Shown piece by piece: positions 6,507-52,675 of a stretch of 64,000 nt of DNA. Source of the DNA: Candidatus Poriferisodalis sp. (lineage in GTDB: Bacteria; Actinomycetota; Acidimicrobiia; Acidimicrobiales; Poriferisodalaceae); contig NZ_OZ241968.1 of NCBI RefSeq assembly GCF_965204125.1, positions 1,048,840-1,112,839 of the forward strand. The letters run 5' to 3'. The notes below the pieces were generated by a model. The model searched no databases, was not told where the DNA came from, and saw only the letters and a list, made by a program, of their open reading frames with translations. Within the stretch, counting starts at the first letter, position 1, and each line of letters opens with the position of its first letter. Made by a program: the position numbers and the translations under genes.

Positions 6507-9233
<2,727 letters not shown>

Positions 9234-14649: not shown

Positions 14650-15900
14650 TCAGGTTGCGCTGGTGGAGGCGGGGTTGAGGAATTGGCGCTGCCACAGTTG
14701 GTCTCGCTCTGGGGCGGTGAGCTGGGCCAGGTCGCACACGTCGTTCCATTCGCTGCGGATGGTTTCTGTGTGGTGCTCGACGATGTCGGCGGCGTCCTCT
14801 CGGTCGAGGTGGTAGTGGCCTGCGTGCTCGACGCAGCCGTCGACCTGGCTGATGCGCTCGCCGCCGGGGCCGTAGGCCATGGCCTGGAACGCTTCGCCGC
14901 CGGTGCGCAGCTGCGGGCAGATGTCATACGCGGGCGTGAGCGTGAGCATCTCGCCGTCCCAGAAGGCGGCGTGGTTCTTGGGGTGGTCGTCGGTGTTGCT
15001 CACCAGGATGTTGAACACGATGCGCGAGAACAGCTCGCGCAGCGTCGCGTCGGCTGAGATGAATCGGGCCCGGATCTGGTCTGCGAGGTCGACATAGGTG
15101 CCGTATCGGCCTGCGATGCCGCCCGCGGCGTGCAGGTTCAGCACCGTGAGCGCCGACACCGTCAGGCGACGTCCGCCGTCGGGCGTGCGGTCGAACCGGT
15201 CCACCACCAGCACGTCGCGGCCCGCGGCGGAGCTCAGCGTGACCGGGGCGGCGTCGATGCCGGCTCGGCGCGCCAGTTCCATCGCGACGAACTCGGCCTT
15301 GACCACCGGGAAGCTGTCGGCTGCGGAGCTGAACTTCGCGATCATGTGACGCGACCCCTCCACGAGAGTCGCCTTGGGGCGTGCGCCGCCCATCGAGGTG
15401 CCTCCCAGCAGCGCCCGCTCCAACGCCGGCGGCAGCGCACGGCCCTCCTCGATGCTGGCGGCCGCCTCGGCCAGCTCGGCCAGCGACGACTGCTCGGCGA
15501 CCCTCGGCACATAGTCGGCAGGCGAGGCCTGGAAGTCGAGCGCCCCGGCGCGGTCGGAGCCCGAGCAGAGCAGGTAGCCGAGCTCGGAGAGGTCCCGGTC
15601 CGCGAGGCGGTTCCGGTGCTCGATCACCCTGCGGCCCCACGCATCGGGCGCACTGTCGGCGATGCAGCCCGGCAGGGACCCCGACGCGGGCGGCACCTCC
15701 CCGGGCACCAGCGGCAGGTCGGGCAAGTACAGCGGCACGGCATCGGGATTGTCGAGGTAGCTGCGGCCGTAGGTGAATGTCGCCACAGGCCCTCGGTCAT
15801 CGAGGCGCCCCGCCACCACCGGCTCCACGGCGCCCGCAAGCCACACCCACACGTACACCGTGGGCGGGTTCAGCAGCGATTCAGAAGTCGTCATCGACAT
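14650..15900 (-). CDS. hipA: HipA-family serine/threonine kinase toxin
   Basis: Motifs GGARPKATL, VVDRFDR and NTDDHPKNHAAFWDG. The likely start, ATG 15900 or 15894 (MSMTTSES), overlaps the 3' end of the upstream HTH gene. The ORF is open from 15933. Confidence 0.85.
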   Translation of the reverse strand: MSMTTSESLLNPPTVYVWVWLAGAVEPVVAGRLDDRGPVATFTYGRSYLDNPDAVPLYLPDLPLVPGEVPPASGSLPGCIADSAPDAWGRRVIEHRNRLADRDLSELGYLLCSGSDRAGALDFQASPADYVPRVAEQSSLAELAEAAASIEEGRALPPALERALLGGTSMGGARPKATLVEGSRHMIAKFSSAADSFPVVKAEFVAMELARRAGIDAAPVTLSSAAGRDVLVVDRFDRTPDGGRRLTVSALTVLNLHAAGGIAGRYGTYVDLADQIRARFISADATLRELFSRIVFNILVSNTDDHPKNHAAFWDGEMLTLTPAYDICPQLRTGGEAFQAMAYGPGGERISQVDGCVEHAGHYHLDREDAADIVEHHTETIRSEWNDVCDLAQLTAPERDQLWQRQFLNPASTSAT

Positions 15901-16216
15901 GACGCCGCCGCACCCGCTGAGGCAGAACGGCAAGGCGGGCCTCGACGAGATCCGCCTCGCGCGCCAGCGTCACCGCGTCGTCGGTGAACAGCGGAACGCC
16001 GACCAGCGCTGCTGCCTCGAACACGGTGCCCAACGCCACCGACGGGTCGCCTCGCTCCACCTTGCCCATCGTGGCCGCGCTGCAGCCCACCCGCTCCGCG
16101 AGCTCCGCGATGGTCCACCGGCGCTCTCGCCGCGCGAGCGCGATACGCCGCCCGAGCAGCCGAGCTGCCTCCACAGTCGAGCGACTCAACGGCCGGCCCG
16201 TTCCCATGACACCCAA
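15881..16216 (-). CDS. hipB: XRE-family helix-turn-helix antitoxin (HipB-like)
   Basis: HTH segment RRWTIAELAERVGCSAATMGKVERGDPSVALGTVFEAAALVGVPLF. Its stop overlaps the hipA start. Confidence 0.8.
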   Translation of the reverse strand: MGVMGTGRPLSRSTVEAARLLGRRIALARRERRWTIAELAERVGCSAATMGKVERGDPSVALGTVFEAAALVGVPLFTDDAVTLAREADLVEARLAVLPQRVRRRHVDDDF

Positions 16217-16439: not shown

Positions 16440-19394
16440 TTAGGGAGTCGGGCTGCTGCCGCTGATACGGGTCTTCCCGCCGTAGTTGAAGTCGTTCTCA
16501 CCAGCGGCCGTGTCGCCGTAGCCATTGGCCACCGAGTCGGTGTCGGTGGTGTCCTGCCGGTCGACAACGGTGGTGGTGGTGTCACTGTCGATCGCTTTGC
16601 CGTTGGCGTCCTTGTCGAAGCCGTCGGGAATGTCGACGATGTCACGCAGCTTCGGCAGCGCGAGCGCAGCCGTGTTGTCCGTCACAACCGTTGCGATGTT
16701 GAACGACCTAGTCCTCTTCGGACCAACGGTTGTCCCCGTCATGGCGAGACCGGTGCCGTCAGTGATGCCGAGGGCTGTCAGCGTGGTCGCCAGCACCGGC
16801 GACTCAACGCCTGGCTGGTGACGACCCATGGCGCCAGCCAGCACATGCGTCATCAGTCGGGTCGACTGATCATCGCTGATGTCCTCGACCCAGCCGTTGA
16901 ACGTGATCGTGACGGTCGCCGTGGTCTGACCACCGGTCAGCGTCGTGATGTCGTCACCGTCGTCACCTGACTCAGGTGTGGTAGTGCCCGACACCGGGAG
17001 GTCCATGTGACGCAGCTCCAGGTTGGCCGACTTGCAGGTGTCAACCGGTGTGCCGCCCGGATCGCTGTAGGCGTTGTCAACGAGGACGTTGAACAGACTG
17101 CTCACCGTCGCGTTGCCCTCCAGCGCTGCCTTCAGGTCAGCGAACTTCGGCTTGCCGTTGACGATCCGCACCACGATCCGGCGGTCCTTGGTGCTGACGA
17201 AGACGTCGATATCAGCGTCCTTGTCACCGTCCCAAGTACTCGCCCGGTCGGCCCGGATGGTCCAGCCGTTGCCGACCGTTCCGGCCGCCTTGCCGTCCGC
17301 CTTGGCCTGCAGCCACACGCCCGGATTGGTGGGCGTGTTGCGGGCAGTCGGAGCGGTGCCTGTCTGATTGGCCGCCGGGATGGCTGCTATGGCCTGGGCC
17401 GGGTGCTTCACGCTGCCGATCGACACGTTGGTCACCTGAAGCTTCTGCACCGGGCTGACCGGCACGCCAGTAGTGACCTGGCTCTCGTTGCCAGCCGTGT
17501 CCTCAATCGCACCACGGTTGGCCCGGAAGCGGTCGTTGGCGTCGATGACATCGGACTCAGTGGCATCGGTGCCGGTGACGTCGCCGAGGGCGAATGTCAG
17601 CAGCGCACTCTTGCGGTCTGAACCAGCCGTGTCGAAGTCGATCTGACTCGCGGTCACGCCCGTGATGCCGACATCGCCGGCAGTCACCTGGAACAGCTTT
17701 GCCAGTTCAGCGCCCGTCGGTGCTGTCTCTGCCAACAGTCCTGTCCGGGCCAGTGCCGTGTTGTCCGACACCAAGCCGTAGAGCGCCGTGTGGCCCCGGA
17801 TGGCGACGATCCGAATCGACGGACGCTGCCTGTCAGGGGTCGGCGCGGGCACGGTGGCCGATGCGGGCTGCACGGTCCGGCGGTCGTCACCGGCGCCCAC
17901 CAGCACAGTGCCAGCCACGATCGAGACCTTGTCGCCGGCCTCCAGGCCGCCTACACGCTCGATAGTCACGGTCACCGAATCCGGGTCGCAAACGGCCGCT
18001 GTGGAAGCGTCCGTCGCGATGTCCACGGGTACACCGTTGACCTGGAGGATGTCCTCCAGCCGGTTCCGCAGGTCAACCGCGGTGGACGGCGCAACATCAT
18101 CGCTGAAGTACAGCGTCACCCGATTGTCGCCCGGAACCAAGATCGGCGTCTTGCCATCCGCCGCAAAGCGGTTCTCGTTGGTTGTGGCGTCGCTGTCGTC
18201 GGCTGCTGCAGTACCGATCGTGACGGTCAGTGCGTCGGCCGAGGCAGCAGCGTCCTTCGCCGCTGACATGACTGCGTCGCTCACCGCGGCGGTGCCGCCG
18301 ATGGCCAGGATCCGCAGGTGCAGCTTGTTGCCGCCGACCTCTTCAGGCGTGCCAGCCAGGTAGTCGCGCACCGAAGCAGGCAGGGTGTCGCCGACCGCGA
18401 GGATCGGGATCAGACCGCTGCCGAGCTGGTCGGTGTCGTCAGCGAGCACCGGAGCGGCCGGAATGCCGTCGATCACGCTGTCGCTGTTGATCAGCGCCAC
18501 GGTGTTGGTGGACACCGGCGACAGGTCATCAGCGCACGCGTCGCCCATCACTTTGGCGATGTTCACCGACACCTCACCGGCAGAATCGCCGCCGATGCGC
18601 TCGACCGTGTCGACGCCAGCGTTCTCCAGTGCGGTCATGACGTCGGCAGACACGCTGCCCTCGCCGCCGACCACTACTGCATGCTCCACGTTCTCGGTTT
18701 CGATATAGCTCACGACCGCGTCGACGAGATCGTCGCCGGCAGTCAGCAGCACCGGCAGCTCGAGCCGGTTCGCCACCGGGCCGATCGCCACAGCGTTGAA
18801 CAGCGAGTCATCAGAACCGTTCACCACGATCGCGGAGTTCTCATTGGTGCCGCACCACGACTCACCCGACAGGTTCGACGCAATCGCAGCCGAAGTGTCA
18901 TAACGGGTGTCGCCCGAGATACGGGTCACCTTCGGGCTGTTGGCCAGCCCCTTGAGGGCATCTTCCACGGCACTGCTGACGGCTGCCTCGCCGCCGAGCA
19001 CGTACAGATTGCCGATGCCGTAGTCCTCGATGTAGTCGGCCACTGCACCATGCAGGGCGCCCGACTGCGTCAACAGAACTGGGGCGTCCATGAAGCCCGC
19101 CAGACCGGACACAGAAACAGCGTCGACCAACGACTCGCCCGATGCGACGAACGCATTCGAGACCGAGCCGATGCCGCCGCGGTCATTCGCGAAGCGGGTG
19201 GCGAGCTTCAGCGCCGTCTGGTAGCGGTCGCTACCGGCGAACTCGCGTGCGCCTGCGGCGGTGAGGTACTCACCAGATGTGTTTGCGGCTTGGGCTGGGT
19301 TTCCCGCTACGACTGCCAGCACCGATGCCATCAGCATCGCCGCCAGGATCGCAGCGAGGGAACGCCTGCCTCGCCGCTTCGAGTAGGTAGTCAA
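16440..19394 (-). CDS. Large CWB2-anchored surface protein, putative S-layer-type paralog S1 (984 aa)
   Basis: TTG start. N-terminus MTTYSKRRGRRSLAAILAAMLMASVLAVVAGNPAQAANT. Three CWB2 units (GSDRYQTALKLATRF, SGDTRYDTSAAIASNL, GGDSAGEVSVNIAKVM). About 90% identical to S3 over the first ~400 aa by eye. C-terminal tail NDFNYGGKTRISGSSPTP. Confidence 0.85.
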   Translation of the reverse strand: MTTYSKRRGRRSLAAILAAMLMASVLAVVAGNPAQAANTSGEYLTAAGAREFAGSDRYQTALKLATRFANDRGGIGSVSNAFVASGESLVDAVSVSGLAGFMDAPVLLTQSGALHGAVADYIEDYGIGNLYVLGGEAAVSSAVEDALKGLANSPKVTRISGDTRYDTSAAIASNLSGESWCGTNENSAIVVNGSDDSLFNAVAIGPVANRLELPVLLTAGDDLVDAVVSYIETENVEHAVVVGGEGSVSADVMTALENAGVDTVERIGGDSAGEVSVNIAKVMGDACADDLSPVSTNTVALINSDSVIDGIPAAPVLADDTDQLGSGLIPILAVGDTLPASVRDYLAGTPEEVGGNKLHLRILAIGGTAAVSDAVMSAAKDAAASADALTVTIGTAAADDSDATTNENRFAADGKTPILVPGDNRVTLYFSDDVAPSTAVDLRNRLEDILQVNGVPVDIATDASTAAVCDPDSVTVTIERVGGLEAGDKVSIVAGTVLVGAGDDRRTVQPASATVPAPTPDRQRPSIRIVAIRGHTALYGLVSDNTALARTGLLAETAPTGAELAKLFQVTAGDVGITGVTASQIDFDTAGSDRKSALLTFALGDVTGTDATESDVIDANDRFRANRGAIEDTAGNESQVTTGVPVSPVQKLQVTNVSIGSVKHPAQAIAAIPAANQTGTAPTARNTPTNPGVWLQAKADGKAAGTVGNGWTIRADRASTWDGDKDADIDVFVSTKDRRIVVRIVNGKPKFADLKAALEGNATVSSLFNVLVDNAYSDPGGTPVDTCKSANLELRHMDLPVSGTTTPESGDDGDDITTLTGGQTTATVTITFNGWVEDISDDQSTRLMTHVLAGAMGRHQPGVESPVLATTLTALGITDGTGLAMTGTTVGPKRTRSFNIATVVTDNTAALALPKLRDIVDIPDGFDKDANGKAIDSDTTTTVVDRQDTTDTDSVANGYGDTAAGENDFNYGGKTRISGSSPTP

Positions 19395-19447
19395 GGTTAT
19401 GTTTCTCCTTGTTCGGCTCCTTTCCGTGTGATTTCGAGCGCTGATAA
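19395..19447 (-). promoter_or_regulatory. Full surface-gene 5' leader (copy A) with two SD-like purine tracts
   Basis: Minus strand reads ttatcagcgctcgaaatcacacGGAAAGGAGccgaacAAGGAGAaacataacc followed by TTG. Nearly identical to the leader at 56362..56418. Confidence 0.7.
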
Positions 19448-19596
19448 CTCACTCGGCGGCGGCCCGTGAAGCACCCCGGCTGCACCGGTCAGCGCATCGG
19501 CGCCGGTCATGACTGGTCGGGCGACACTTCTGCCTGAACGATGCCGCAGTACTGAATGGAGCCCCGCGGCGCCCTCAAAGGAGAAGTCATATAGAT

Positions 19597-20205
19597 ATGG
19601 ACAAGATCACGTACTACGACGAGCTGCAGAAGGGCTCGCAGGCGTACGGCGAACACTTGGATCGCCTGCTCATCGCATCGATGGGCATCATCTTGGCAAC
19701 CCTCGGGTACGGCGCTGCGTTCTACGCGAGCTCACTCGCCGAGCGAGCATTCAGGCCATTTGTGGGGATTGGGGGCCTGCTGCTCGTGTTAGCACTGCTG
19801 CCGAGCTGCGTGCTGTACCTCAGCCGTTCGAACGTCACGCCGAGCCCGGACCGGCGAGCGCTCAACCCAGGCCTGCACAGGTACTGCGCCGAGAATTCTG
19901 CTCGATGGAATCGGCTGCGGCTGCACATGCTGGGCGCAGCGTGGTTCACGATCTTCGCGATCGGCGCCCTCGTAGTTGCCGCGCTGTCGATCGGCACCTC
20001 GGCGTCGGCGATCTCATGGCAGCGCTCGCATGTGCTCGGCGTCGTGACGGCACTTCTCGCCGCGGGCTTCACGCTGTATGGCCACGTACAGGTCGGGCGA
20101 TGGATCATGGGCCGCAGGCAGAGGGAGTTGCGCCAACGGCTCGCCGCGGGCGATGTCTTCGACCTCGGCGGTTACGGCCTGACGCGCAAGCGCGAACAGT
20201 CCTAG
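19597..20205 (+). CDS. Hypothetical integral membrane protein (about 4 TM segments)
   Basis: ATG preceded by aaggagaagtcatataga (strong SD). Hydrophobic stretches LLIASMGIILATLGYGAAFY, FVGIGGLLLVLALLPSCVLYL, LGAAWFTIFAIGALVVAALSI and VLGVVTALLAAGFTLYG. Confidence 0.65.
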   Translation: MDKITYYDELQKGSQAYGEHLDRLLIASMGIILATLGYGAAFYASSLAERAFRPFVGIGGLLLVLALLPSCVLYLSRSNVTPSPDRRALNPGLHRYCAENSARWNRLRLHMLGAAWFTIFAIGALVVAALSIGTSASAISWQRSHVLGVVTALLAAGFTLYGHVQVGRWIMGRRQRELRQRLAAGDVFDLGGYGLTRKREQS

Positions 20206-20416
20206 TTGAGACGCAGGCTTCGAAAGCTGTGGCGCTCGTGACGCAACTGAGGCTCCGCCTACAGACTCCGCGCGTCGCATCGACGGCAAGTGGCCGGAGA
20301 ACGCCACGCTCGTCGCTGACGCCATGCAGGGGGCTGTCGCTGAGCCGGACCATGGCGAACCGCGGTAACCGCTCATCCGCGATCCACACACAGGTGTTCG
20401 GTACTCTCGAATAGCG

Positions 20417-20444
20417 CTGCCCCCCAGCCGAAGCCGGGGGGCAG
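20417..20444. terminator. GC hairpin ctgcccccc...ggggggcag
   Basis: Inverted repeat read from the sequence, about 210 bp downstream of 19597..20205. The owning gene is uncertain. Confidence 0.35.
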
Positions 20445-20980
20445 ATGGTACGTCCACCTGACATGAGCAGGTGGCGCTGAGCACAGCCCTGCCGGAGAAA
20501 CCGGTGGGGCTGTGTCTCGTATCAGCGTAGCACGTCCATACACCCGCGCGCGGACAGTCCACGAATCACGCTCAGTGCGCGATTCAGATCCCGAGTTGGC
20601 GCCGGGCGATGCGCAGTTCAGCCAGACAAGTGCCTATGTCGGTCGCGACGCCACGAACCACAGCCCAGTCGTCGTCGGACAGGATCACCGAGCAGCCTGA
20701 GCAGGGCGGCTAGGCCCTACACACAGCGCTGAAGCGGTGCCGCTGGCCGGTGGGCCGGACACTGCGACGATTGAGGTATGGCAGCACAGGATCAGCCCAA
20801 ACCGCGTGAGAAACCGCAGCGTCGAGAGACAGCGGAACCGATCCCCGACAGCATGGAGAACGTCGCGGCTGCGGCCCTGGACACGCCACCGAAGAAGAAC
20901 TGGCGCTACCTCAACAAGCGCTAGAGCGACCGTCTCTGCTGAGACGGTGCCCGTGGAAACTCGACAGGTACCGTTGCGCT

Positions 20981-21319
20981 ATGGGCGAACCATTCGACAT
21001 CGGCCAAGAGTGGGCGCTGCGCTGGCTCAACAAGAATCATCCCGTGGAAGCGCCACGCAACCAGAGCCCGATTGACGCCGTGGACTACTGCCAAGACGTA
21101 GCGAACGCGGTGAACGCGCACGCAGTGAAGAAGCTGGCTGAGTTCGAGGCTGTGCTGCGACGCACGCTGATGGACGCGCTCGAAGGTGAGACTGAGCCGA
21201 AGTGTGTGCGGGTGTCGGCAGCGGACCTGTTGGAGTCCGATCGCATGACGTTCCTCGGGAGGAAGATCACGCACGGTGTTGAGCGGCCACGCCGGTTCCC
21301 TGTGAACTTGCACTCCTAG
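20981..21319 (+). CDS. Hypothetical protein (112 aa)
   Basis: ORF with ordinary amino-acid composition in a locally lower-GC segment. No recognisable motif. Confidence 0.4.
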   Translation: MGEPFDIGQEWALRWLNKNHPVEAPRNQSPIDAVDYCQDVANAVNAHAVKKLAEFEAVLRRTLMDALEGETEPKCVRVSAADLLESDRMTFLGRKITHGVERPRRFPVNLHS

Positions 21320-21495
21320 CCGCTTGGGGGAACAGCCCTATAGCCCCCCTCTCGATCAATGGGCCGCCGAGACCGCCAATTGCAGAACCGAGTTGCCGTC
21401 AGTTCAACGGCAGAGACCTCGGGTCACCCCGCATGAATGCACGACAGCCAAAAAATGAGGGCGAGGGTCAAACGATGCAGGGATAGTGTCCGCGC

Positions 21496-22938
21496 GTGGA
21501 CACTGAGGCGTTCATCGAAAGCTATTGCGGCGCAATTGAGGCTGGCCAAGCCAGCGTGCTGATCGGTGCGGGTCTCTCACTCGGGGCCGGCTACCCGACA
21601 TGGGAGGAGTTGCTCGAGCCTGTCGCTGCTCAATTCGAGATCCCTGCAGTCGCTGACCTGCCCCTTCGCGCTCAGTACATCGAGAATCAGCCCGGAGGTC
21701 GCGATCGTCTTGGCCGGCACGTCGCAAAGACCGTCGGCGCGGTTGAGCCGAAGCCCCTTGAGAACCACATTCTGTTGGCGCAACTGGGTATCGCTGACAG
21801 TTGGACTACCAACTTCGATTCACTCGTCGAGACCGCCGACGAACATCTCACGGTCATCGCTCACGACGAAGATCTGGTCGAACGTGCTGTCAGACAACGG
21901 CGCCTCTGCAAGATGCACGGCTCGATTCCTCGCGATGCGATCGAGCCAGATGGTGGTCGCGATCAACTAGTGCTGAGTCGCAGCGACTACGAGCGATACG
22001 AGTGGACCCATCCCCGGCTCTGGCGCCTCTTGCAGGCACAGTTCCTGACGTCGAGCTTCCTGTTCCTCGGATTCTCCATGACCGACCCGAACTTCGAGGC
22101 AGTCTTCAAGATCGCGCGCCTCGTCACCGCGGACAAACCCATGACGCACTACGCGATCATGAAACGGCCCGACAGTGACGACGGCATGTTCGATTTGCGC
22201 GCTGCTGATCTCAGCCGAGCTGGGATAAGGCTCATTGAGATTGCCGACTACAGCGAGATCACGACGATCTTGCGAAAGCTCGTCGTCAGGACGCGGCCGG
22301 CTGGGCTCTTTGTGTCGGGTTCTGCTCGCGACCCTGGTGACACCGAATCGACGGGTTCGGACACCTACCCGACTGCGGAGAGCAACGAACAACTCAACCG
22401 ATTCGCCGAGGCTCTGGGGAACCGTCTTGCGGACGAAGATGTCCCGTCGATTGTCGCGGCTGGTGATATCGGAGCCAGGGTCGGCTATAGCTTCTTGGCT
22501 CGGCTCGAGAACTACGACTCCAGCCGTTTCCTCCTAGTCCGACGGCGTTCCGACAAGGATGTCGATCCTCCATCACGGCGGCAGGGCCAGATCTGGTTCA
22601 GCGGCGAGAAACCCAGCACGATGAGATCCGCAGCATTTGAGCACGTCCGTGCGGTTGTATTACTCGGTGGTGGTTCCGGCACCGAGTCGGAGGCCGAGAC
22701 GGCGCTCGCGTTGGGCATGACTGTCGTACCGGTCGCCCACACGGGAGGTGCGGCGCGCAAGGTTTGGCAGTCCATGTCAGGCGACTTGGAGCGCCATGGC
22801 GGTCATGGCGTTGGTCAGCGAGAGATAGATCCGCAGCAGTTCTCCGACCTCAACTCCCCCGACATCGATACGGCGATGCAGGCCGCAACCGGACTCATCC
22901 GCGATGGCCTCTTCCTCCCGCCCATGGACGACATCTGA
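21496..22938 (+). CDS. ThsA-like protein: N-terminal SIR2 (SIR2_2-type) domain fused to a C-terminal SLOG-like domain
   Basis: SIR2 motifs VLIGAGLSLGAGYPTWEELL, TTNFDSLVE, LCKMHGS and FLFLGFSMTDPNF. C-terminal Rossmann/SLOG-like LFVSGSARD and VVLLGGGSGTESEAETALALGMTVVPVAHTGGAARK. At 480 aa it is the size of Thoeris ThsA. Confidence 0.75.
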   Translation: MDTEAFIESYCGAIEAGQASVLIGAGLSLGAGYPTWEELLEPVAAQFEIPAVADLPLRAQYIENQPGGRDRLGRHVAKTVGAVEPKPLENHILLAQLGIADSWTTNFDSLVETADEHLTVIAHDEDLVERAVRQRRLCKMHGSIPRDAIEPDGGRDQLVLSRSDYERYEWTHPRLWRLLQAQFLTSSFLFLGFSMTDPNFEAVFKIARLVTADKPMTHYAIMKRPDSDDGMFDLRAADLSRAGIRLIEIADYSEITTILRKLVVRTRPAGLFVSGSARDPGDTESTGSDTYPTAESNEQLNRFAEALGNRLADEDVPSIVAAGDIGARVGYSFLARLENYDSSRFLLVRRRSDKDVDPPSRRQGQIWFSGEKPSTMRSAAFEHVRAVVLLGGGSGTESEAETALALGMTVVPVAHTGGAARKVWQSMSGDLERHGGHGVGQREIDPQQFSDLNSPDIDTAMQAATGLIRDGLFLPPMDDI

Positions 22939-22961
22939 GTGTGTCTCACGCCATTCCTACA

Positions 22962-23753
22962 ATGAGCCGCATGGCCGATGTCTCGCTCCTTGAGCATTCC
23001 GAATCGCTGTCGGCGACGATCACTCAAGCATCGCTTGCCAATGACGAATGGGTCGACGCAGATGCGCCGCTCCGCGGGGGACAGTCGACCACCGCTCAAG
23101 AGCGCGTCAGGTTGATCTCGCTCGAGAGCGCCGAGTATCCGGACCGACTTCGTGCGATCGAATTTCCGCCTCGCTATCTGTGCATCATCGGAGATTTTGC
23201 GAAGTCCACGCGCTGCCCGATCGCCATCGTCGGCAGCCGTTCAGCGAGCGACGACGGCGTTACCGCAGCATTCAAGTCCGCTGCAGCGCTGGCCCAACGG
23301 GGTCACAGCATTGTCTCGGGCCTCGCCAGCGGAATCGATGCCGCTGCACATCGTGGCGCACTCGCGGTGAGCGGCCACACCATTGCCGTCGTCGGCACCG
23401 GGGCAGACTGTGTGTACCCGACGGAGAACCTCAAACTGCGAGACGAGATCGCCAAGAGTGGAGCCATCGTCTCGCAGTTTCCGCTCGGCCATGGGCCCAG
23501 CAAGACCACGTTCCCCGCCCGCAATGCGGTCATCGCGGGCCTCAGCGCAGCCAGTCTTGTGATCGAATCGAGCGGCCAGAGCGGTACACGCATCGAAGCC
23601 GAACTGACGCTCGAGCAGGCCAAACCAGTGCTGCTGTGGGCGCCCGTCCTCGGTGATGAGGCATGGGCTCGGGAATTTACGAAGCACCCGCTCGTGGCCT
23701 TCGTCGAGTGCGTTGACGATGTCGCCGCTGTTCTTGACCGCTGCGCAAAGTGA
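22962..23753 (+). CDS. DprA/Smf-like (SLOG superfamily Rossmann) protein
   Basis: IAIVGSRSASDDG, SGLASGIDAAAHRGAL, IAVVGTGADCVYPTEN, SQFPLGHGPSKTTFPARNAVIAGLS and LVIESSGQSGTRIEA. Possible starts are GTG 22941, ATG 22962 and ATG 22971, 3-33 nt after the upstream stop (22936-22938). Confidence 0.8.
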   Translation: MSRMADVSLLEHSESLSATITQASLANDEWVDADAPLRGGQSTTAQERVRLISLESAEYPDRLRAIEFPPRYLCIIGDFAKSTRCPIAIVGSRSASDDGVTAAFKSAAALAQRGHSIVSGLASGIDAAAHRGALAVSGHTIAVVGTGADCVYPTENLKLRDEIAKSGAIVSQFPLGHGPSKTTFPARNAVIAGLSAASLVIESSGQSGTRIEAELTLEQAKPVLLWAPVLGDEAWAREFTKHPLVAFVECVDDVAAVLDRCAK

Positions 23754-24493
23754 CAGCCGACCTCATCGCCATTTCGGACGCACTCGCGGACGAGCTTGTC
23801 CCGATGCCCGGCGATGCGCCAGATGTCTGTCCGATGTGCCGCTCCGGTCGCACATCGCCTCCCGCGCTGTGCAATAGCTGCACCAACACCTCCGGCCAAG
23901 TCGCCCATCCATGTCCGATGGTCATTCCGATCAGCTTCTACGCCAAGCCCTCGCCGCTGCGCGAGCGGATGCACGACTTCAAGGAGCACAGCGACGAGAC
24001 CGTTCGTGCAAGAGAGTCAAGAAACGTCGCGGCGATCGCTGCCCGGTACATCACCGAGCACGGCGGAGCGCTCGCCGCAAAGTTCGGGACTTGGGACGAA
24101 ACTGTCGCAGTGCCGTCGACTCATCACAGCGACCGGCCCGCGCTTCAGTCGGCCATCGAGGACAACTTTCCCGGCATCTTCGCTCCGTTCGCCCGGCCGC
24201 TGATTCAAGGTCCCGGCAACATGGATTTCAATCAGGCAAGCGAATCTGGATTCCTCCCGGCCGGAGTAGTCGACGGCAAGAGGTATCTGCTCATCGACGA
24301 TACGTTCACCACGGGCGCCCGGCTGCACTCGGCACATCACGCGCTCGTGGCAGGCGGGGCCATTGTCCCCGCAGCCATCATCGTCACACGCAAGATCAAT
24401 CCGTCCCCGCTCTACGGCAGTCTTGCTATGTGGAACCGACAGACTCAGGTCGCGTTCCGATTTGATGCGCCTCCATGGTGGAGCGCAAGGTAG
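23750..24493 (+). CDS. ComF-like phosphoribosyltransferase (PRTase) with an N-terminal Cys4 zinc ribbon
   Basis: CPMCRSG...CNSC zinc ribbon. PRPP-binding loop RYLLIDDTFTTGARLHSAHHALVAGGA. The GTG start overlaps the DprA-like stop (GTGA at 23750-23753). Confidence 0.8.
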   Translation: MTADLIAISDALADELVPMPGDAPDVCPMCRSGRTSPPALCNSCTNTSGQVAHPCPMVIPISFYAKPSPLRERMHDFKEHSDETVRARESRNVAAIAARYITEHGGALAAKFGTWDETVAVPSTHHSDRPALQSAIEDNFPGIFAPFARPLIQGPGNMDFNQASESGFLPAGVVDGKRYLLIDDTFTTGARLHSAHHALVAGGAIVPAAIIVTRKINPSPLYGSLAMWNRQTQVAFRFDAPPWWSAR

Positions 24494-24742
24494 GACAGTG
24501 CTTGAGGATTCCAGTCGCGAGAGTCGGGCGGCAGCTGGGTACTGGTGCCAGCGCCTGCCGCAGATTGGCGCCAGTGCTGGAGTCGCCAAGACGAAGTGAC
24601 GGCAACTGTTGATGCTCGCTGAGGAGACGGCTGTTGCCCTGCGGGTCTCGAGTACCAGCCGGGTTTTCTGTCCGCAGATGAGGAGACTGAGCTGCTCGCG
24701 AAGATCGACGGCTGCGGGTGGCTCGGCGATCTCGCGAGGCGC

Positions 24743-25225
24743 GTGCAGCACTACGGGTACAAGTACGACTACGCGAATCGTCAGCTCGACGAGTCCGCCC
24801 GCATCGGGCCGCTGCCGGAGTGGCTGACGCAGCTCACGCACAGGGTTCGTGCCGCCGCGTCTGAGGACTCGAAGCACCTGCTCGACGCGCATCAGCCATT
24901 CGAGCAGGCGATCGTCAACGAGTACGAGCCCGGCCAAGGCATTGCGCCGCACATCGACAGGGATTGCTTCGGACCGGTCGTTGCAACCGTGAGCTTGGGC
25001 TCAGCGGTCGACATGGATTTCCGCTGCGACGCCACCGGCGAGGGGTTCGTGCAGCGGCTGGAGCCCCGCAGTCTCGTTCTCATGCACGGCGATGCGCGCT
25101 GGCGGTGGCGTCATGGCATCGCCAAGCGGCGCACCGACGCCTGGGGTGGGCAGAAGGTCGCCCGCCTGCGACGCGTGTCGATCACCTTCCGCACCATCGC
25201 GGACACAGAGTCGGACGCTCCTTGA
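24743..25225 (+). CDS. AlkB-like 2OG-Fe(II) dioxygenase; the conserved N-terminal segment lies upstream without an in-frame start
   Basis: Iron and 2OG ligand motifs APHIDRD, RWRHGI and RVSITFR. In-frame upstream codons 24644-24742 read GLEYQPGFLSADEETELLAKIDGCGW (AlkB N-terminus), but the only ATG (24612) is in another frame. Confidence 0.7.
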   Translation: MQHYGYKYDYANRQLDESARIGPLPEWLTQLTHRVRAAASEDSKHLLDAHQPFEQAIVNEYEPGQGIAPHIDRDCFGPVVATVSLGSAVDMDFRCDATGEGFVQRLEPRSLVLMHGDARWRWRHGIAKRRTDAWGGQKVARLRRVSITFRTIADTESDAP

Positions 25226-25744
25226 CGCACGCCCGGCCGTGACCTCACGGCGCTGCGCGAGGCAGGTGAGACTCGACCGGCCGGCAGCGGGGCGCAGCGC
25301 GCTGCGCAGTGCATCGTCGGCCGCCAAGTCGGCACGAATGCCGGGCAAGCCCTCAAAGCAAAAGTGCGCGGCGAATTGTCGCCTCAAATCAGGTGGCGCG
25401 ATTTACCGGGACGCTATGACCAACGGCGTGCGGCTTGAGCTCGACAGCCACTGGTGACAGTGCTCGCATATCCACCCTGTGATTCTCACGAGGTTGTCGT
25501 GGTCTGCGGTCAGGTTGCGCCGGTGGATCGGTTCGTGGTGGGCGATTCGGTTGCGAAGGAAGTTCAGGCGTTGACATGTCACTCGCCAGGGGTAAGCTCT
25601 CGATCGAAGACCCCGGAACCGTCAATGCTTCGGCAAACGGCCGGGGTTACGCCTTTGCGGACAGCAAACACGAGGCCCCTGCAGGAGTCCAACGATCTAC
25701 GTCCGCCCGGCCCGAAGCCGGCCGAAGCTGAAATGAGCCCGCGG

Positions 25745-25935
25745 CGGTGCGCGGAACTGCCTGCCCCGCAGCTCCGCCCAGACAGACACGATCCTGTTTC
25801 TCCTTGTTCGGCTCCTTTCCGTGCGATCTCGAGCCCCGACAGTCCCCAGATGGGTCCGTATGTGCGGTGCCTGGGCCGCCGCAGTCGGCCTCGGCCGCAG
25901 CGTTGCTCGACGGGGCTGACCGTTACGATTCGGTC
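25745..25935 (-). repeat. Orphan surface-gene leader copy B: ~95-nt upstream extension, leader and decayed 5' coding remnant
   Basis: Minus strand reads atcgtaacggtcagccccgtcgagcaacgctgcggccgaggccgac...ctgtcggggctcgagatcgcacggaaaggagccgaacaaggagaaacaggatcGTGtctgtctgggcggagctgcggggcaggcagttccgcgca. Near-identical to the inverted copy at 51637..51825. Confidence 0.85.
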
Positions 25936-26397
25936 ATGAGCGCGAGCGCAGCTGCGACGTCGGTGGACGTCCCTGATGTGTTGCTGCGCGCCTGTGATCT
26001 GCCTGGGTTGATCGCGGACGACGACGGGAGGGGCCGTGTGGTGGCCATCCGGCAGTTCGTCAAGGACTGGGCGGCCGCTGACCCGCTGCGCCGGCGCCGC
26101 ATGATCGCCGACCCGCCGCGGCATCGCCGCCTTCGCCACCGTTTCGGGGCGCGTCGTTTTGATCTCGCCCGCATAGCGGCCGTGGTCGATGCGCTGTGCG
26201 AACGCGACGGCGTGCAGGCCCCGTCGTGGGTCGCGGCGTCGCGGGCGCGCCGGCCTGTGTCGCTGACGAAGTCACGCTTGGACCAGTCGCCGTGGAATGA
26301 CTGGGTGCGCTCGGTGGCGCCGCCTGCATGCGGCCGGCACAACGTGTGGTTCGTGCCCGCAACCCTTGACGACCACCGGGTGCATGGCTTCCGCTGA
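25936..26397 (+). CDS. Hypothetical protein, upstream partner of a nucleotidyltransferase-fold protein
   Basis: ATG 25936 inside ORF 25747..26397. Its stop (26395-26397) overlaps the next gene's ATG at 26384, as in bicistronic TA-type modules. Confidence 0.5.
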   Translation: MSASAAATSVDVPDVLLRACDLPGLIADDDGRGRVVAIRQFVKDWAAADPLRRRRMIADPPRHRRLRHRFGARRFDLARIAAVVDALCERDGVQAPSWVAASRARRPVSLTKSRLDQSPWNDWVRSVAPPACGRHNVWFVPATLDDHRVHGFR

Positions 26398-26809
26398 GCG
26401 CGGTTCAGGACCAGCGGAGACTCTGTTCACCGCAGAACGAATGCTCGGCTACTTGGCCGAGCTGGACGATGTGCTCGCCGACGAGGGCGTAGCCGAAGTG
26501 CTGCACCTGCACGTGGCAGGTGGCGCGGTCATCGCCACCAAGACCGACGCCCGGCTCACCTCAGATGTCGATGTCGTCTCTGAGGCGATGACCGAGCAGC
26601 TGCGACGTGCCGTTGTGGTGGTGAGCGAGCGTCACCCAGGACTTCGCCGTGATTGGCTCAACGACGGCGCCAAGCTCCAGCGCGTCAACCTGCCCATGGA
26701 ACCCGAGCGCATCTACACCGGCAGTTGCCTGGTGGTGGACTCAGCGGGCGACCGCTACGTGCTGGCGATGAAGCTCGCCAGCGGACGACCGATCGACGAA
26801 GCCGAATGA
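26384..26809 (+). CDS. Minimal nucleotidyltransferase-fold protein (DUF6036/AbiEii-like)
   Basis: NTase signature G[GS]-x(n)-DxD in HLHVAGGAVIATKTDARLTSDVDVV. About 140 aa. Confidence 0.5.
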   Translation: MASAERGSGPAETLFTAERMLGYLAELDDVLADEGVAEVLHLHVAGGAVIATKTDARLTSDVDVVSEAMTEQLRRAVVVVSERHPGLRRDWLNDGAKLQRVNLPMEPERIYTGSCLVVDSAGDRYVLAMKLASGRPIDEAE

Positions 26810-26883
26810 GGATCCGCCGCCCAAAGTGAGCCCCGGCTGCAGCGGAGCCAGACAAGACCTTGTCGCGGGCCCCGAGCATGTCC

Positions 26884-27070
26884 CGCACAGACGCGAGGAG
26901 CCCCAGGGGCGGGACCCCTGCGACTGCAGATGCACCGCCGTGCCCAGCCTTGGCGGCCACAGTGTCGACCGCCTGCCCGCCGCTCCGCCCAGACAGCCAA
27001 GGTCCTGTTTCTCCTTGTTCGGCTCCTTTCCGTGCGATCTCGGGCCCTGACAGTCTCAAGACGGCCGTTC
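26884..27070 (-). repeat. Orphan copy C: leader, ~65-nt 5' coding remnant and terminator-like hairpin (a collapsed surface-gene cassette)
   Basis: Minus strand reads gaacggccgtcttgagactgtcagggcccgagatcgcacggaaaggagccgaacaaggagaaacaggaccTTGgctgtctgggcggagcggcgggcaggcggtcgac...cagggg-tcccg-cccctg-gggctcctcgcgtctgtgc. The last part matches the conserved terminator module gacgcgaggagcccc. Confidence 0.75.
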
Positions 27071-27284: not shown

Positions 27285-28565
27285 TCAGGTCGTCCAGAGT
27301 GAGGAGATGGGCCGCATGCTGATGCGGTCCCCGAGGCTGAGGTCGTGCTCGCCCATGTGCAGCACGATCCCGCCGGCGAACGCTCCGGGGGCCACGGTGT
27401 CGAGCCGGTCGCGCAGCCAGCGAAGGTGATCTGCGGCGCGGGGCGAGGGAGAGCTGCTGGCCTTGACCTCGATGGCGGTCACCGAGCCGTCGGGCGTCTC
27501 GAGGATGATGTCTGCCTCATGGTGCGCGTCGCGGTAGTGCCACAGGCTGATGCGAACAGCGCTGCTGGTGGCTTGACGGGCGATCTCGTTGACGACGAAC
27601 GACTCCGCCAGCATGCCGAATGCCTGTGACGTCGGCGCCAGCAGCGCCTGTGGCCCGGTGCCGAGCAGGTGCGCGGCGAGGCCGGTGTCGGCAATGTGCA
27701 GCTTGGGGCGCCGGATCGCTCGCGCCGACAGGTTGCGCGACCAGGCCGGGAGCTCCTGTGTCAAGAACACGGCCCGGAGCCAATCGAGGTAGCTGACGAC
27801 GGTCGGCTGGCTGATGGCGAGCCGCCTCGACGCCGCGGTGAGGTTCAGTTCCTGGGATGTCTGGGCGGCGGTCCAGCGCAGCAGCGGCGCCAGGGCGGTG
27901 GATCGCCGGATGTCCGCAAGCGCAGTGATGTCGCGCCCCACGACGGTCTCGATATAGCTCTCGAACCAGCCCGCACGCAGGTCCTCGGGCAGCCGCAGCA
28001 CCTCGGGATACCCGCCAATGCAGATCAGCTCGGCATAGTCGCGCCGGCTCAGCGGCGGCGAGCTGCCAGGGCGCGGGGCACCGGGCGGGCTGTCGCCGCT
28101 CATCCACCTCTCGATCGGCGGGCTCTCGGCGCCGGCGATCTCGGCTTGAGACAGGGGGGTCAGGCGCATCAGCCTGGCTCGCCCGGCCAGCGACTCGCTG
28201 ATAGTCGGCACCGACAAGAAATCGGTGGAACCGGTCAGCAGGAACCGGCCCGGCGTCTGCTCTTCGTCTGCCAGGCGCTTGACCGCCCTGATCAGCCGGT
28301 CGCCGGCCAACTGCACCTCATCGACAGCCAGCGGCGTCGGCCACGCACTCAGCAGCGCGGCGGGATCGTCAAGCGCAGCCTGCAGCATCGGCTCGTCTTC
28401 GAGGGTGACATAGGTGCCGCCTGCGCGCTCGGCCACCCTGCGCGCCAGGGTCGTCTTCCCCGACTGGCGCGCACCGTGCAGCACCACGACGCGAAAGCCG
28501 CCAAGCGCACGGCTGACGCGGGGACTGAGGTGCCGGGCGATGTGCCCCTCGATGCGTGCGACCAC
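27285..28565 (-). CDS. AAA ATPase with a C-terminal DUF4143 (restriction-endonuclease-like) domain
   Basis: Walker A VVVLHGARQSGKTTLAR. C-terminal SLWHYRDAHHEADIILETPDGSVTAIEVKAS, typical of the AAA_14 + DUF4143 family. Confidence 0.8.
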   Translation of the reverse strand: MVARIEGHIARHLSPRVSRALGGFRVVVLHGARQSGKTTLARRVAERAGGTYVTLEDEPMLQAALDDPAALLSAWPTPLAVDEVQLAGDRLIRAVKRLADEEQTPGRFLLTGSTDFLSVPTISESLAGRARLMRLTPLSQAEIAGAESPPIERWMSGDSPPGAPRPGSSPPLSRRDYAELICIGGYPEVLRLPEDLRAGWFESYIETVVGRDITALADIRRSTALAPLLRWTAAQTSQELNLTAASRRLAISQPTVVSYLDWLRAVFLTQELPAWSRNLSARAIRRPKLHIADTGLAAHLLGTGPQALLAPTSQAFGMLAESFVVNEIARQATSSAVRISLWHYRDAHHEADIILETPDGSVTAIEVKASSSPSPRAADHLRWLRDRLDTVAPGAFAGGIVLHMGEHDLSLGDRISMRPISSLWTT

Positions 28566-28904: not shown

Positions 28905-31028
28905 ATGCGGCGCGGTGCCGTGGCGGTTGCTGTGGTTGCGCTGGTCGCCGCCGCCACCGTTGCGTTCCCGGTGGGTGCGCAGGCGCTCGACAGAGGCTCG
29001 CCCATGCAGACGGTGCGGATATCGAACGGCCTGTACCTGTTCTGGTACGAGGTGGCAGGAGCAACGGGCTACGACGTGCAGATGCGCTCCCTGGGCAGCG
29101 ACAACACCTGGCAGCAGTGGAACAGCGTCGACTACAGCGGCACGTACCAGCCGCTCATCGTCACCGGTCTGGTGTCGGGCACCAAGTACCAATGGCGGGT
29201 CCGAGCGAAGAACGGCACGCAGACGGGCCCGTGGTCGCCCACCGATGACGACACCGACCCTGCGTACAACCAGACAGTGACGGCGTTCGGCAGCGGCGTG
29301 CCCAACGCGCCGATCATCACGGCGGTCTCGGGCACCGCGCAGTCGATCACGGTCGGGTGGATCCCCGGGGAGTCGCGCAGCGGTGTGGCAGCGGACGGCT
29401 GGGTCGTCAGCTATTTCTGGTACGACGAGAACGACCAGTACCACATCCGCCGTTCCGAGCGTCTTGCAGCGTCGGCGAGGACGCACACGTTCAACGTAGC
29501 CACAGGCGTCGATGTCGAGTACGAGGTGTTCGTGCGGTCCTACGCCGGGACGCGTGCAGCCGGTGCGTCATCGAACGTCGTGTGCGTCATCCCGAACCGG
29601 GTGCATGCGGCGCCGCATACACGGCTGCCGCCGCCTCGCACCCCTACGCAGAACCCGACGCCGCAACCGACGCCGACGACCCCGACGACGCAACCGCCAC
29701 CCGACAACGACAACCCACCGCCCGACAACAACGAGGATCCGCCACCCGACAACAACGAGGATCCGCCACCCGACAACGACAACCCACCGCCCGACAACAA
29801 CGACAACCCACCGCCGAACAACGACAACCCACCGCCGAACAACGACAACCCACCGCCGAACAACGAGAACCCACCGCCGAACAACGAGAACCCACCGCCG
29901 GGCAACGAGAACCCACCGCCGGGCAACGACAGCCCGCCGCCGGGCGATGCCGACGTACCGCAGTCAGACGACCCGGGCGATCCGCCGTCTCGCACCCCGA
30001 GGGGGAAGTGGCGCGACGTGGACGTGGAACGCGTGGGAGGCCCAGACCGGATCACCACCGGCGTCACCGTCGCCGAGACCTACGCCGAGCGGCGGAGAAA
30101 CGCCGGCGACGACATCGACAGCGTGATCGTGGCGACCTCGCTGCGCTTCCCCGACGCGTTGTCGGCGTCGTCGTTGGCGGGGCTGATCGACGCGCCGATC
30201 CTGCTGACCGAGCTCGATCGGCTGTCGAAGCCCACGGCCGAGTTCATCGAGGCCCACGGCATCGAGCGGGTGTTCATCATGGGCGAGCACGAGGCCGTGT
30301 CGTACAAGGTCCAGCGGGCCATCGAAGCCCTCGAGCCCGTGCGCGAGGTGATCCGCCTCGGCGGTGCCGACCGCTACGAGACGTCGGTCAAGATCGCCGA
30401 GTACGTGGGCACACCGGGCAGCTTCTGCGGCACCAACCGGCGAACCGTGCTGCTGGCCACCGGCACCAAGTTTCCCGATGCGCTCGCGGCAGCGCCGGTC
30501 GCGGCGGTCGGCAAGCACAGCCTGCTGCTCAGCTATCCCGACCGCCTGCCGCCGCTGGTGCGCACGCACCTGCACCAAGGCGCGCTGGAGGGCTCCATCG
30601 ACCGTGTGGTGATCGTGGGCGAGACCAGCGCCGTCTCGCGCAGTGTGGAGCAGATGCTCGCACGCCTCGGCCTGATCACGGTGCGCGTCGGCGGCGCCGA
30701 CCGCTACGACACCGCCGCCCTGCTCGCCAAGTACGCGGTAGACGACACCTCGCCCACGCCGGCGGGCTGCCTCGGCAACAAGGCTGCGGCCATCGTCACC
30801 GGCCGCACTTTTGCCGACGCGCTGGTGGCCGGGCCGCTCATCGCCTACGCACAGGGTCCCACGCTGCTGCTGAACCCGCCCAGCTTCATCCCCGCCCCCG
30901 TCGTGCGCGTGCTGCGCGCCGGCATCTTCGACCGCGAGGCGGTGGAGCTGGTGGTGGTGGGCGGTCGCCGTGCACTGCCCGATCAGCAGGTGAAATGGGT
31001 GCGCGACATCTTGCGGCGCGCCGACTAG
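28905..31028 (+). CDS. Secreted FN3-domain protein with a Pro/Asn/Asp repeat linker and three C-terminal CWB2 repeats
   Basis: Likely start ATG 28905 (MRRGAVAVAVVALVAAATVAFPVGAQALD) inside ORF 28764..31028. FN3-like YDVQMRSLG...GLVSGTKYQWRVRAKN. CWB2 motifs GGPDRITTGVTVAETY, GGADRYETSVKIAEYV and GGADRYDTAALLAKYA. Confidence 0.8.
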   Translation: MRRGAVAVAVVALVAAATVAFPVGAQALDRGSPMQTVRISNGLYLFWYEVAGATGYDVQMRSLGSDNTWQQWNSVDYSGTYQPLIVTGLVSGTKYQWRVRAKNGTQTGPWSPTDDDTDPAYNQTVTAFGSGVPNAPIITAVSGTAQSITVGWIPGESRSGVAADGWVVSYFWYDENDQYHIRRSERLAASARTHTFNVATGVDVEYEVFVRSYAGTRAAGASSNVVCVIPNRVHAAPHTRLPPPRTPTQNPTPQPTPTTPTTQPPPDNDNPPPDNNEDPPPDNNEDPPPDNDNPPPDNNDNPPPNNDNPPPNNDNPPPNNENPPPNNENPPPGNENPPPGNDSPPPGDADVPQSDDPGDPPSRTPRGKWRDVDVERVGGPDRITTGVTVAETYAERRRNAGDDIDSVIVATSLRFPDALSASSLAGLIDAPILLTELDRLSKPTAEFIEAHGIERVFIMGEHEAVSYKVQRAIEALEPVREVIRLGGADRYETSVKIAEYVGTPGSFCGTNRRTVLLATGTKFPDALAAAPVAAVGKHSLLLSYPDRLPPLVRTHLHQGALEGSIDRVVIVGETSAVSRSVEQMLARLGLITVRVGGADRYDTAALLAKYAVDDTSPTPAGCLGNKAAAIVTGRTFADALVAGPLIAYAQGPTLLLNPPSFIPAPVVRVLRAGIFDREAVELVVVGGRRALPDQQVKWVRDILRRAD
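29695..29950 (+). repeat. About 11 tandem 24-bp in-frame repeats encoding PPP(D/N/G)N(D/N/E)(N/E)(N/D)
   Basis: Reads PPPDNDNPPPDNNEDPPPDNNEDPPPDNDNPPPDNNDNPPPNNDNPPPNNDNPPPNNENPPPNNENPPPGNENPPPGNDSPPPGD. Confidence 0.9.
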
Positions 31029-40700: not shown

Positions 40701-40720
40701 GGTTATGTTTCTCCTTGTTC
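40701..40720 (-). promoter_or_regulatory. Truncated leader of S2 (only the gaacaaggagaaacataacc part is shared with full leaders)
   Basis: Minus strand reads ccgttgcaca|gaacaaggagaaacataacc|TTG. Homology to the full leader begins exactly at gaacaaggag. Confidence 0.7.
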
Positions 40721-52659: not shown

Positions 52660-52675
52660 GATCCGCGCTGCGCAT

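Follow-up and report, generated by a model that had tools for sequence, protein, structure and literature searches.

A 13-nucleotide leader site and a candidate integrase-driven inversion system at S-layer-type genes of Candidatus Poriferisodalis

A 64 kb stretch of contig NZ_OZ241968.1 from Candidatus Poriferisodalis sp. (the window, in whose coordinates all positions are given) contains five paralogous genes, S1 to S5, for S-layer-type proteins of the CWB2 family, together with a leader repeat that heads such genes and also stands without one. Comparison with the leader and integrase loci of relatives (numbered L0xx) shows that whole S genes have been exchanged among three kinds of upstream end, named R, P and Q, with a 13-mer within this leader, GAACAAGGAGAAA, as the junction. 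We consider it rather likely that the locus is an inversion shufflon for S-layer genes resembling the vpma and vsp loci of mycoplasmas, in which a putative integrase, encoded between S2 and S3, acts at the 13-mer.

The leader repeat and its occurrence

The core of the leader is the 28-mer CACGGAAAGGAGCCGAACAAGGAGAAAC, for which seven matches were found in the window against 0.00 expected from 100 dinucleotide-preserving shuffles. Six of the copies are exact (19401-19428, 25796-25823 and 27007-27034 on the minus strand; 52713, 54999 and 56385 on the plus strand), and the seventh, belonging to leader F (51747, plus strand), has three mismatches. By means of a profile built from the window copies (nhmmer), leaders A (19385-19455), B (25779-25853) and C (26990-27063) were placed on the minus strand and leaders F, G, H and I on the plus strand within 51.7-56.4 kb, while E (50586-50628, plus strand) matched the 5′ half of the profile only. 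Alignment of all copies gave a leader block of about 55 nucleotides (nt) up to a TTG start, CTGTCAGGGC(C/T)CGA(A/G)ATC(A/G)CACGGAAAGGAGCCGAACAAGGAGAAAC, and the TTG is followed by a signal-peptide n-region of the form M-T-T-x-S/T-K-R-R-G-R-R-S-L-A-A-I-L. As judged from these alignments, the repeat is the promoter-proximal 5′ untranslated region (5′UTR), the ribosome-binding site (RBS), the TTG and the first ~15 codons of CWB2 S-layer-type genes encoding proteins of ~1000 amino acids (aa). The 13-mer GAACAAGGAGAAA lies within the leader and overlaps the RBS.

The five CWB2 paralogues of the window share the leader or a half-leader together with the N-terminus, and the same holds for at least ten loci of relatives. 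The full leader is present on S1 and S5 and only its 3′ part on S2 and S3, and the region upstream of S4 differs. A fifth copy of the S-gene terminator, 98% identical to that of S1, lies at the right edge of the window (63902-63942) and implies another minus-strand S gene just past it. When one genome per species was searched (185,579 species genomes), the leader was confined to metagenome-assembled genomes of Acidimicrobiia / Candidatus Poriferisodalis, which are sponge symbionts, and in these relatives it both heads intact genes and stands orphaned. A metagenome scan yielded three real additional loci, all of the intact-leader type; L014 was a chance match in a repetitive coding region.

No Rfam family was matched anywhere in the window. 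A structured RNA leader was considered and rejected, as RNAalifold applied to 22 diverse copies returned two trivial pairs and no covariation, and only the primary sequence was conserved. Scans for sigma-70 promoters and intrinsic terminators in the arrays and the integrase segment gave none above shuffled expectation. Upstream of the full (R-type) leaders a semi-conserved motif, GTGAACGGCCG-N8-10-CTGTCAG (GAAC-N16-GTC), was seen by eye in the alignment only, for example at 50565-50600 and 52670-52700, and it resembles a promoter of the extracytoplasmic function (ECF) sigma factor type.

Exchange of whole S genes at the 13-mer

S2 and S3 diverge from a 2.1 kb segment encoding a P4-type tyrosine integrase, in which arm-binding, central and catalytic domains are present and the HxxR and Tyr motifs are visible (Table 1). 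The segment is flanked by an inverted repeat (40585-40729 and 42831-42975), and the leader homology of both S genes begins at the identical nucleotide, at GAACAAGGAGAAA, corresponding to profile position 45. The ends meeting at this site were named R (the full leader), P (the integrase-upstream end, ...CATATCGACGGGCGCAGCGATGCGAG|GAAC) and Q (the integrase-downstream end, ...GCAGAGCGGGAGCATCTCCCGTYGYACA|GAAC); upstream of GAAC, P, Q and R are mutually unrelated. No tRNA genes were found in the 64 kb, and a tRNA-associated P4-type island was rejected on this ground and on the ground that the flanking repeats are inverted, not direct. Exact-protein look-ups with the window integrase and P0195 gave no match.

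The loci of relatives were traced from integrase homologues of 85-98% identity and had integrase segments of 1.6-3.7 kb. The arrangement of a minus-strand S gene, a 13-mer, the integrase, a second 13-mer and a plus-strand S gene was found with the same P and Q ends in L023, L024, L025, L026, L027 and L030. A varied form of this layout with two integrase copies occurs in L028, whose integrase is 73% identical. The two copies stand in tandem (L028 5702-11203), each with its own P-like end resembling a diverged full leader, which suggests that P ends evolved from R-type leaders.

The genes joined to P and Q are not the same in all loci. In the window, L027, L030 and L025, P is joined to the gene type 'AAAA ggaacc' and Q to the type 'AAAC (a/g)taacc', and in L023/L024 and L026 the partners are reversed relative to the window. 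Whole genes were exchanged in this manner: S3, on the P end in the window, is 86% identical over 2.9 kb to the Q-end gene of L026, and the gene behind an R leader in L023 and L004 matches the Q-end gene of L027 at 85-86% identity over 2.9 kb. In L025 (7x coverage) and L026 (229x), which come from one sample, the 1608-nt integrase segment is 100% identical, and the sequence joined to P in the former is the one joined to Q in the latter (100% for ~1.2 kb), with the switch of partner exactly at GAAC.

Every junction of a P, Q or R end with a gene falls at GAACAAGGAGAAA. Because the three ends are unrelated upstream of GAAC and the bases that distinguish the gene types start from position 14, only 13 nt are left for the crossover, which is far too short a stretch for RecA-type recombination and is a hallmark of conservative site-specific recombination. 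In the window as well as in the relatives, most sites face outward from the integrase, minus-strand sites prevailing on its left and plus-strand sites on its right. In L004 (4993-7345), a Q end with an S2-type gene is present without an integrase, a full leader with a 30-nt F-type tail taking the place of integrase and P end; this arrangement may be a product of deletion or recombination.

A history of homologous recombination only, with RecA-dependent exchange, gene conversion and illegitimate deletion as in the sap locus of Campylobacter fetus and with the integrase as passenger of an old island, appears quite improbable. It would be favoured by the long inverted paralogous stretches (S1/S3, 929 nt at 88%), by N-terminal types that are mosaic relative to the gene bodies, and by a patch of 104 nt at 100% identity shared by leaders A and I (19333-19436 and 56377-56480), which is not bounded by the 13-mer. 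The patch comprises the leader and the first 25 codons of S1 and S5, two genes that are inverted, 37 kb apart and ~66% identical outside it, and it looks like a recent gene-conversion patch. The homology on the P/Q/R side amounts to just 13 nt, however, and yet all junctions are found there. The position of the integrase between inverted half-leaders is moreover kept in at least seven assemblies at 73-98% protein identity, and the truncation point of leader E is the dinucleotide at which the P and Q ends also stop. These observations argue for a site-specific recombinase, with homologous exchange beside it.

Orphan leaders and the cargo between them

An initial annotation, made from the letters of the window, had described the left arm as a mirror image of the right. 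This layout is real, but its centre, the integrase with the half-leaders of S2 and S3, had been overlooked. The order given for the left arm (C, the two-gene module, B, a 5.6-kb island, A and S1, with the three leaders on the minus strand bracketing plus-strand cargo) was confirmed, as was the lower GC content of the island (0.60-0.63 at 21-24 kb against 0.65-0.70 in the flanks). B and C form a remnant subtype of their own (104 nt at 87.5%, with GTCTGGGCGGAGC.GCGG.GCAGG in common), and B and F are inverted twins (169 nt at 89.9%, 25929-25763 against 51641-51807), whose common upstream extension has two mismatches in 92 nt (98%), slightly above the ~95% first estimated by eye. The longest perfect run between B and F is 46 nt. 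The inversion that had been proposed between them would need homologous recombination, since the 13-mer of F is degenerate (GAGCAAGGAGAGA), and the 46-nt run is the more likely route.

The wider expectation that leader copies are substrates of recombination was borne out by the relatives, in which synteny breaks at leader copies (L002/L010, L005, L015) and S genes have been exchanged at the 13-mer. In L002 and L010, the flank of S1 (16.1-16.4 kb) is directly joined to that of S4 (48.9 kb), and a piece that in the window lies beside the tail of B (25561-25740) sits on the right arm. The RCC1/CWB2 gene (11.5-14.4 kb) occurs in three orientations relative to the leader copies and the SIR2 island (L005, L015). 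The proposal that both arms arose by one process on surface-gene leaders stands, but not its form, as leaders inserted or duplicated again and again before cargo explain the arrays poorly.

Orphans B, C, F, G and H all consist of the leader, the start codon and ~45-60 nt resembling the N-terminus of an S gene, after which they diverge. In B, a decayed N-terminal tail of ~50 nt extends to 25745, and the extension common to F occupies 25838-25929. The 3′ side of C carries a degenerate copy of the S-gene terminator hairpin (26887-26927), and in L029 an intact version of the two-gene module (82% nt identity) is followed first by the terminator and next by a convergent S gene that is intact as well; on these two grounds C is read as an S-gene unit with its open reading frame (ORF) deleted, and B is probably likewise the remnant of a complete unit that lost its ORF. 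The upstream flank of C is conserved beside leader copies in L003 and L009. In L005 and L010 a full leader with tail precedes the downstream flank of E, TTGCGCCTACTAA, and derivation from such a leader by deletion accounts better for E. A pairing of E with S2 or S3 as simple attL and attR was rejected, as orientations and order misfit a single insertion. S4 is followed by two minus-strand VapBC pairs and then by E, and this stretch is an intact example of the standing unit: leader, S gene, terminator and convergent accessory module. Taken as a whole, B, C and E to H appear to be the 5′ ends, partly with terminators, of S units whose ORFs were deleted, the convergent toxin-antitoxin (TA) and defence modules being left between them.

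The same arrays might instead have grown by integron-like serial capture, which we hold to be possible, if unlikely. Each orphan leader with its cargo would then be a cassette that the integrase had integrated, in circular form, into an S-gene leader (an attB- or attI-like site); every cassette would bring a promoter-leader copy, so that the S gene stays expressed, and older cassettes would be pushed outward, which would yield the order leader-cargo-leader-cargo-leader-gene. Consistent with this, homology blocks of the relatives start inside the leader core: F with its downstream cargo is 95% identical to L009 and has another upstream end, and the tail of G, which stands behind an H-type upstream end, has 96% identity with L008. 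Cargo modules are also found at unrelated sites in other genomes, the integrase resembles those of integrative elements in being of the P4 type with an arm-binding domain, the orphan tails form a clade distinct from the resident genes, as expected if tails travel with elements, and the outermost copy, C, has the upstream flank that is conserved in relatives. For C, however, the S-gene terminator and the arrangement in L029 mean that deletion of an ORF suffices and no insertion is needed. The distal boundaries are unclean, the homology between F and L009 ending within an ORF at 52337. Neither a circular or attP-type junction nor an empty site turned up, the sites on either side of the integrase are inverted and not direct in every locus, and the cargo is decaying. 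A related proposal, in which the arrays are a cassette-capture platform analogous to an integron, with a P4-type integrase, the 5′UTR of S-layer genes as docking site and the same enzyme inverting the locus, is rather unlikely; if it were true, variation of phage receptors and acquisition of defence genes would be coupled at one recombination site.

The orphans are not uniformly degraded. The exact 13-mer is present at 24 of 25 distinct sites on intact genes against 8 of 17 orphans, and the 5′ 14 nt of the core (CACGGAAAGGAGCC) are 94% conserved in orphans against 32-45% in the flanks. The latter pattern could be taken to mean that orphans are functional transcription units, each equipped with its promoter, terminator and GGA-rich 5′UTR, acting as antisense RNAs against the convergent TA and defence cargo or as decoys for a translational regulator of S genes; most orphans are in addition followed by a hairpin resembling a terminator and face the 3′ ends of the cargo. 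Such a role is highly improbable, given that neither a conserved secondary structure, covariation nor an Rfam family was detected, that promoter scans found none and that the tails are not conserved in sequence beyond subfamilies. Gene conversion from working leaders explains the conservation equally well.

Among the cargo assignments of the initial annotation, Pfam supported those of S1 (CWB2), SIR2_2 with STALD, DNA_processg_A (DprA-like) and 2OG-FeII_Oxy_2 (AlkB-like). The phosphoribosyltransferase (PRTase) label rests on a weak ComF match and on weak Pribosyltran matches in paralogues of the neighbours, and a nucleotidyltransferase (NTase) fold for the two-gene module found no support in Pfam, NCBIfam or PADLOC even at lenient thresholds, one distant homologue of the module carrying DUF6036. 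The ThsA-like, ShosA-like and PRTase-like genes (21496-24493) look like a composite Thoeris-like/Shosta-like defence system without ThsB; Thoeris pairs ThsA with ThsB, and Shosta pairs the PRTase ShosT with the DprA-like ShosA. This trio was found with 77% nt identity at an unrelated site in L017-L022 and with 89% beside a leader remnant in L015; in other Acidimicrobiia it adjoins a second pair of PRTase and DprA genes.

Several of the cargo genes are damaged. The oxygenase frame is open from 24623 and has no ATG, GTG or TTG before 24743, while 24609 is the start of a short ORF read in a different frame; this suggests a frameshift or pseudogene. Gene 2 of the two-gene module, starting at 26387, encodes 140 aa against ~200 aa in homologues, ~60 C-terminal codons having been lost; an internal deletion of ~180 nt left MRIRRPK* out of frame at 26806-26829. 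The MNT/HEPN-like genes survive as fragments only. A short minus-strand ORF (25403-25582) with NRIAHHEPI, a motif of the Abi_2 type, is probably a gene fragment as well, and the same piece is found on the other arm in L010.

The cargo of the right arm consists of an NYN-domain protein, a helix-turn-helix (HTH) and NTase-like pair and a RES/Xre pair. Around the S genes the TA and defence genes comprise HipA, two VapBC pairs, NYN, HTH with NTase-like, RES/Xre, Schlafen/AlbA_2-HATPase_c_4 and a DUF4143 ATPase (in this order, 14650-15933, 48944-50503, 50741-51403, 52828-54242, 55102-56270, 35602-37299 and 27285-28565). By its predicted gene content the entire 64 kb is a surface-protein and defence island. 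In-frame tandem repeats of 9, 27 and 21 nt are present in large ORFs (6245-6422, 7612-7926 and 29703-29982), two of the arrays in minus-strand ORFs at 3.8-9.2 kb and the third, the Pro/Asn/Asp-rich 21-nt repeat, in a plus-strand ORF at 29.4-31.9 kb; they are possible length-variable linkers.

Table 1. Features of the S-gene locus, listed by position in the window
Feature	Coordinates	Strand	Details	Basis
S1	16440-19394	-	984-aa CWB2 (S-layer-type) protein, TTG start; paralogous to S2-S5	Pfam CW_binding_2, E=2.8e-31
Leader A	19385-19455	-	Full R-type (5′UTR, RBS and start), on S1; core 19401-19428, 13-mer 19402-19414	Profile
Predicted membrane protein	19597-20205	+	No family match	
ThsA-like SIR2-STALD	21496-22938	+		Pfam; PADLOC ThsA 3.5e-68
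ShosA-like DprA/SLOG	22962-23753	+		Pfam; PADLOC ShosA 1.2e-55
PRTase-like gene	23750-24493	+		No PADLOC match; weak ComF/PRTase signal
2-oxoglutarate (2OG)-Fe(II) oxygenase (AlkB-like)	24623-25225	+		Pfam 2OG-FeII_Oxy_2, 7.6e-24
Leader B	25745-25929	-	Orphan, R-type; leader 25779-25853, core 25796-25823, 13-mer 25797-25809	Profile
Two-gene module	25936-26809	+	Gene 1 25936-26397, gene 2 26387-26809	
Degenerate S-gene terminator hairpin	26887-26927	-	3′ of C	Repeat family D19 (copies behind S1, S2 and S3); by-eye alignment to S 3′ ends
Leader C	26968-27070	-	Orphan, R-type; core 27007-27034, 13-mer 27008-27020	Profile
S2	37803-40720	-	Half-leader, TTG at 40700; homology from GAACAAGGAGAAA at 40708-40720; Q end upstream	nhmmer, profile positions 45-74 only
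Integrase segment	40721-42839		2.1 kb, between inverted half-leaders of divergent S2 and S3	Pfam, inverted repeat
Small ORF	41089-41400	-	103 aa, adjoining the integrase	
P4-type tyrosine integrase	41514-42713	-		Pfam Arm-DNA-bind_3, Phage_int_M, Phage_integrase
S3	42840-45748	+	Half-leader, TTG at 42860; GAACAAGGAGAAA at 42840-42852 joined to P end	Profile; Q-end gene of L026 86% nt, full length
Leader E	50586-50628	+	5′ half of R-type leader, cut at same GA as P and Q ends	nhmmer, profile positions 4-46
Leader F	51641-51807	+	Orphan, inverted twin of B; degenerate 13-mer GAGCAAGGAGAGA at 51761-51773	Inverted repeat, alignment
Leaders G and H	52685-55043	+	Orphans (G 52685-52757, H 54976-55043) bracketing minus-strand HTH_17 and NTase-like pair and MNT/HEPN-like fragments	Profile, Pfam
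Leader I and S5	56356-59226	+	Leader 56356-56428 on S5, TTG at 56419	Profile, alignments

The inversion model and known systems

Beyond the comparative evidence at the junctions, we infer the following steps. The P4-type integrase would catalyse conservative site-specific recombination at the 13-mer; between inverted sites the intervening DNA would flip, S genes would be paired anew with other upstream regions, and the outcome would be antigenic or phase variation of the S-layer. The mirror-image arrays are explained by this scheme because the sites face outward and left-right inversions preserve that pattern, and two mirror arrays ending in the intact S1 and S5 would be the expected steady state. 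Recombination between direct repeats of the same arm would lead to deletions, a plausible source of the orphan leaders, and TA modules between the sites would counter-select such deletions. Homologous recombination and gene conversion among the long paralogous stretches would be superimposed on these events.

A number of observations weigh against the inversion model or complicate it. The core dyad of the site is only weak (CAAGG-N10-CCTTG, by eye), and no arm-type sites were identified. The R ends outnumber the S genes (8 against 5-6 in the window), unlike in single-promoter shufflons, and consensus sigma-70 scans of the R, P and Q ends were empty, with eight R-type ends, a P and a Q end present in the window. 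Homologous exchange must also operate, since the identical patch of A and I is not bounded by the 13-mer. L025 and L026 may be two strains and not one switching population, and more than one event separates them, as their other flanks differ (63% identity). The site at L026 position 580 (plus strand) violates the outward-facing rule. Finally, the orphan tails form a clade of their own and the 5′ half of their core is better conserved than the 13-mer, neither of which is predicted by simple decay.

Mycoplasmas, Bacteroides and a few pathogens are well known to shuffle surface genes by means of a recombinase encoded in the locus. To our knowledge, and after a limited search of the literature, neither S-layer-type genes in Actinobacteriota nor uncultured sponge symbionts have been reported to undergo such shuffling; a search on the name of the organism found no papers. 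If the model is confirmed, a symbiont, whether obligate or facultative, alters its outermost protein layer, which bears on phage evasion and host recognition, and a P4-type integrase has been reduced to an invertase whose crossover site overlaps a ribosome-binding site. In its alternation of orphan leaders with TA and defence modules, the locus would then be a concrete example of a shufflon becoming a hotspot for defence islands. For experiments, primers and substrates can be taken directly from the 13-mer and the three kinds of end.

Four further kinds of system share features with the locus. P4-type tRNA islands have the same integrase domains (Arm-DNA-bind_3, Phage_int_M and Phage_integrase), whereas here there is no tRNA, the inverted sites are in the 5′UTRs of protein genes and the island consists of the integrase with or without one small ORF. 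Chromosomal integrons likewise have repeat arrays separating small TA-rich modules beside a tyrosine recombinase, and in both cases TA modules could stabilise a deletion-prone array of direct repeats. An integron was nevertheless rejected, as the integrase is of the P4 type and not IntI and the repeats are leader copies without a conserved fold, lacking attC hairpins; the cargo here encodes regulators of its own, most of it lies antisense to the repeats, and the boundary C is a deleted gene. The sap locus of C. fetus, studied by Dworkin and Blaser in the 1990s, also has several S-layer homologues with conserved 5′ regions; reportedly, a segment between opposed homologues inverts and so switches the expressed gene, nested larger inversions add copies, and the process is RecA-dependent, with several hundred bp of 5′ identity and an invertible segment that holds the promoter and secretion genes. 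Here, the junction lies within 13 nt with unrelated DNA on one side, and the segment encodes a tyrosine integrase. In Clostridioides difficile, cwpV encodes a CWB2 protein and is controlled through inversion by a tyrosine recombinase, RecV, in the leader between promoter and ORF (PMC2784873). That system differs in that a single gene, a 195-bp element and terminator formation are involved, no genes are exchanged and the recombinase is encoded elsewhere.

The closest likeness is to the vpma locus of Mycoplasma agalactiae and the vsp locus of M. bovis (Xer1/Mbr), in which a surface multigene family with a conserved 5′UTR and signal peptide is likewise accompanied by a locus-encoded tyrosine recombinase. 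The 72 nt preceding the start codon contain the recombination sites, with 21 identical bases among them, and the inverted blocks are otherwise unchanged (PMC2268961). Common to these loci and the one described here are sites in the 5′UTR with a short stretch of full identity and the movement of whole genes between upstream regions. The present locus, known from sequence comparison, differs in its actinobacterial host (Acidimicrobiia) and in encoding CWB2 S-layer-type proteins and not lipoproteins. Rather than a Xer-like enzyme, a P4-type integrase equipped with an arm-binding domain is present, encoded between two divergent members of the family and not at the edge of the locus. In place of one unique promoter it has many promoter-like ends, orphans included, and its site overlaps the RBS.

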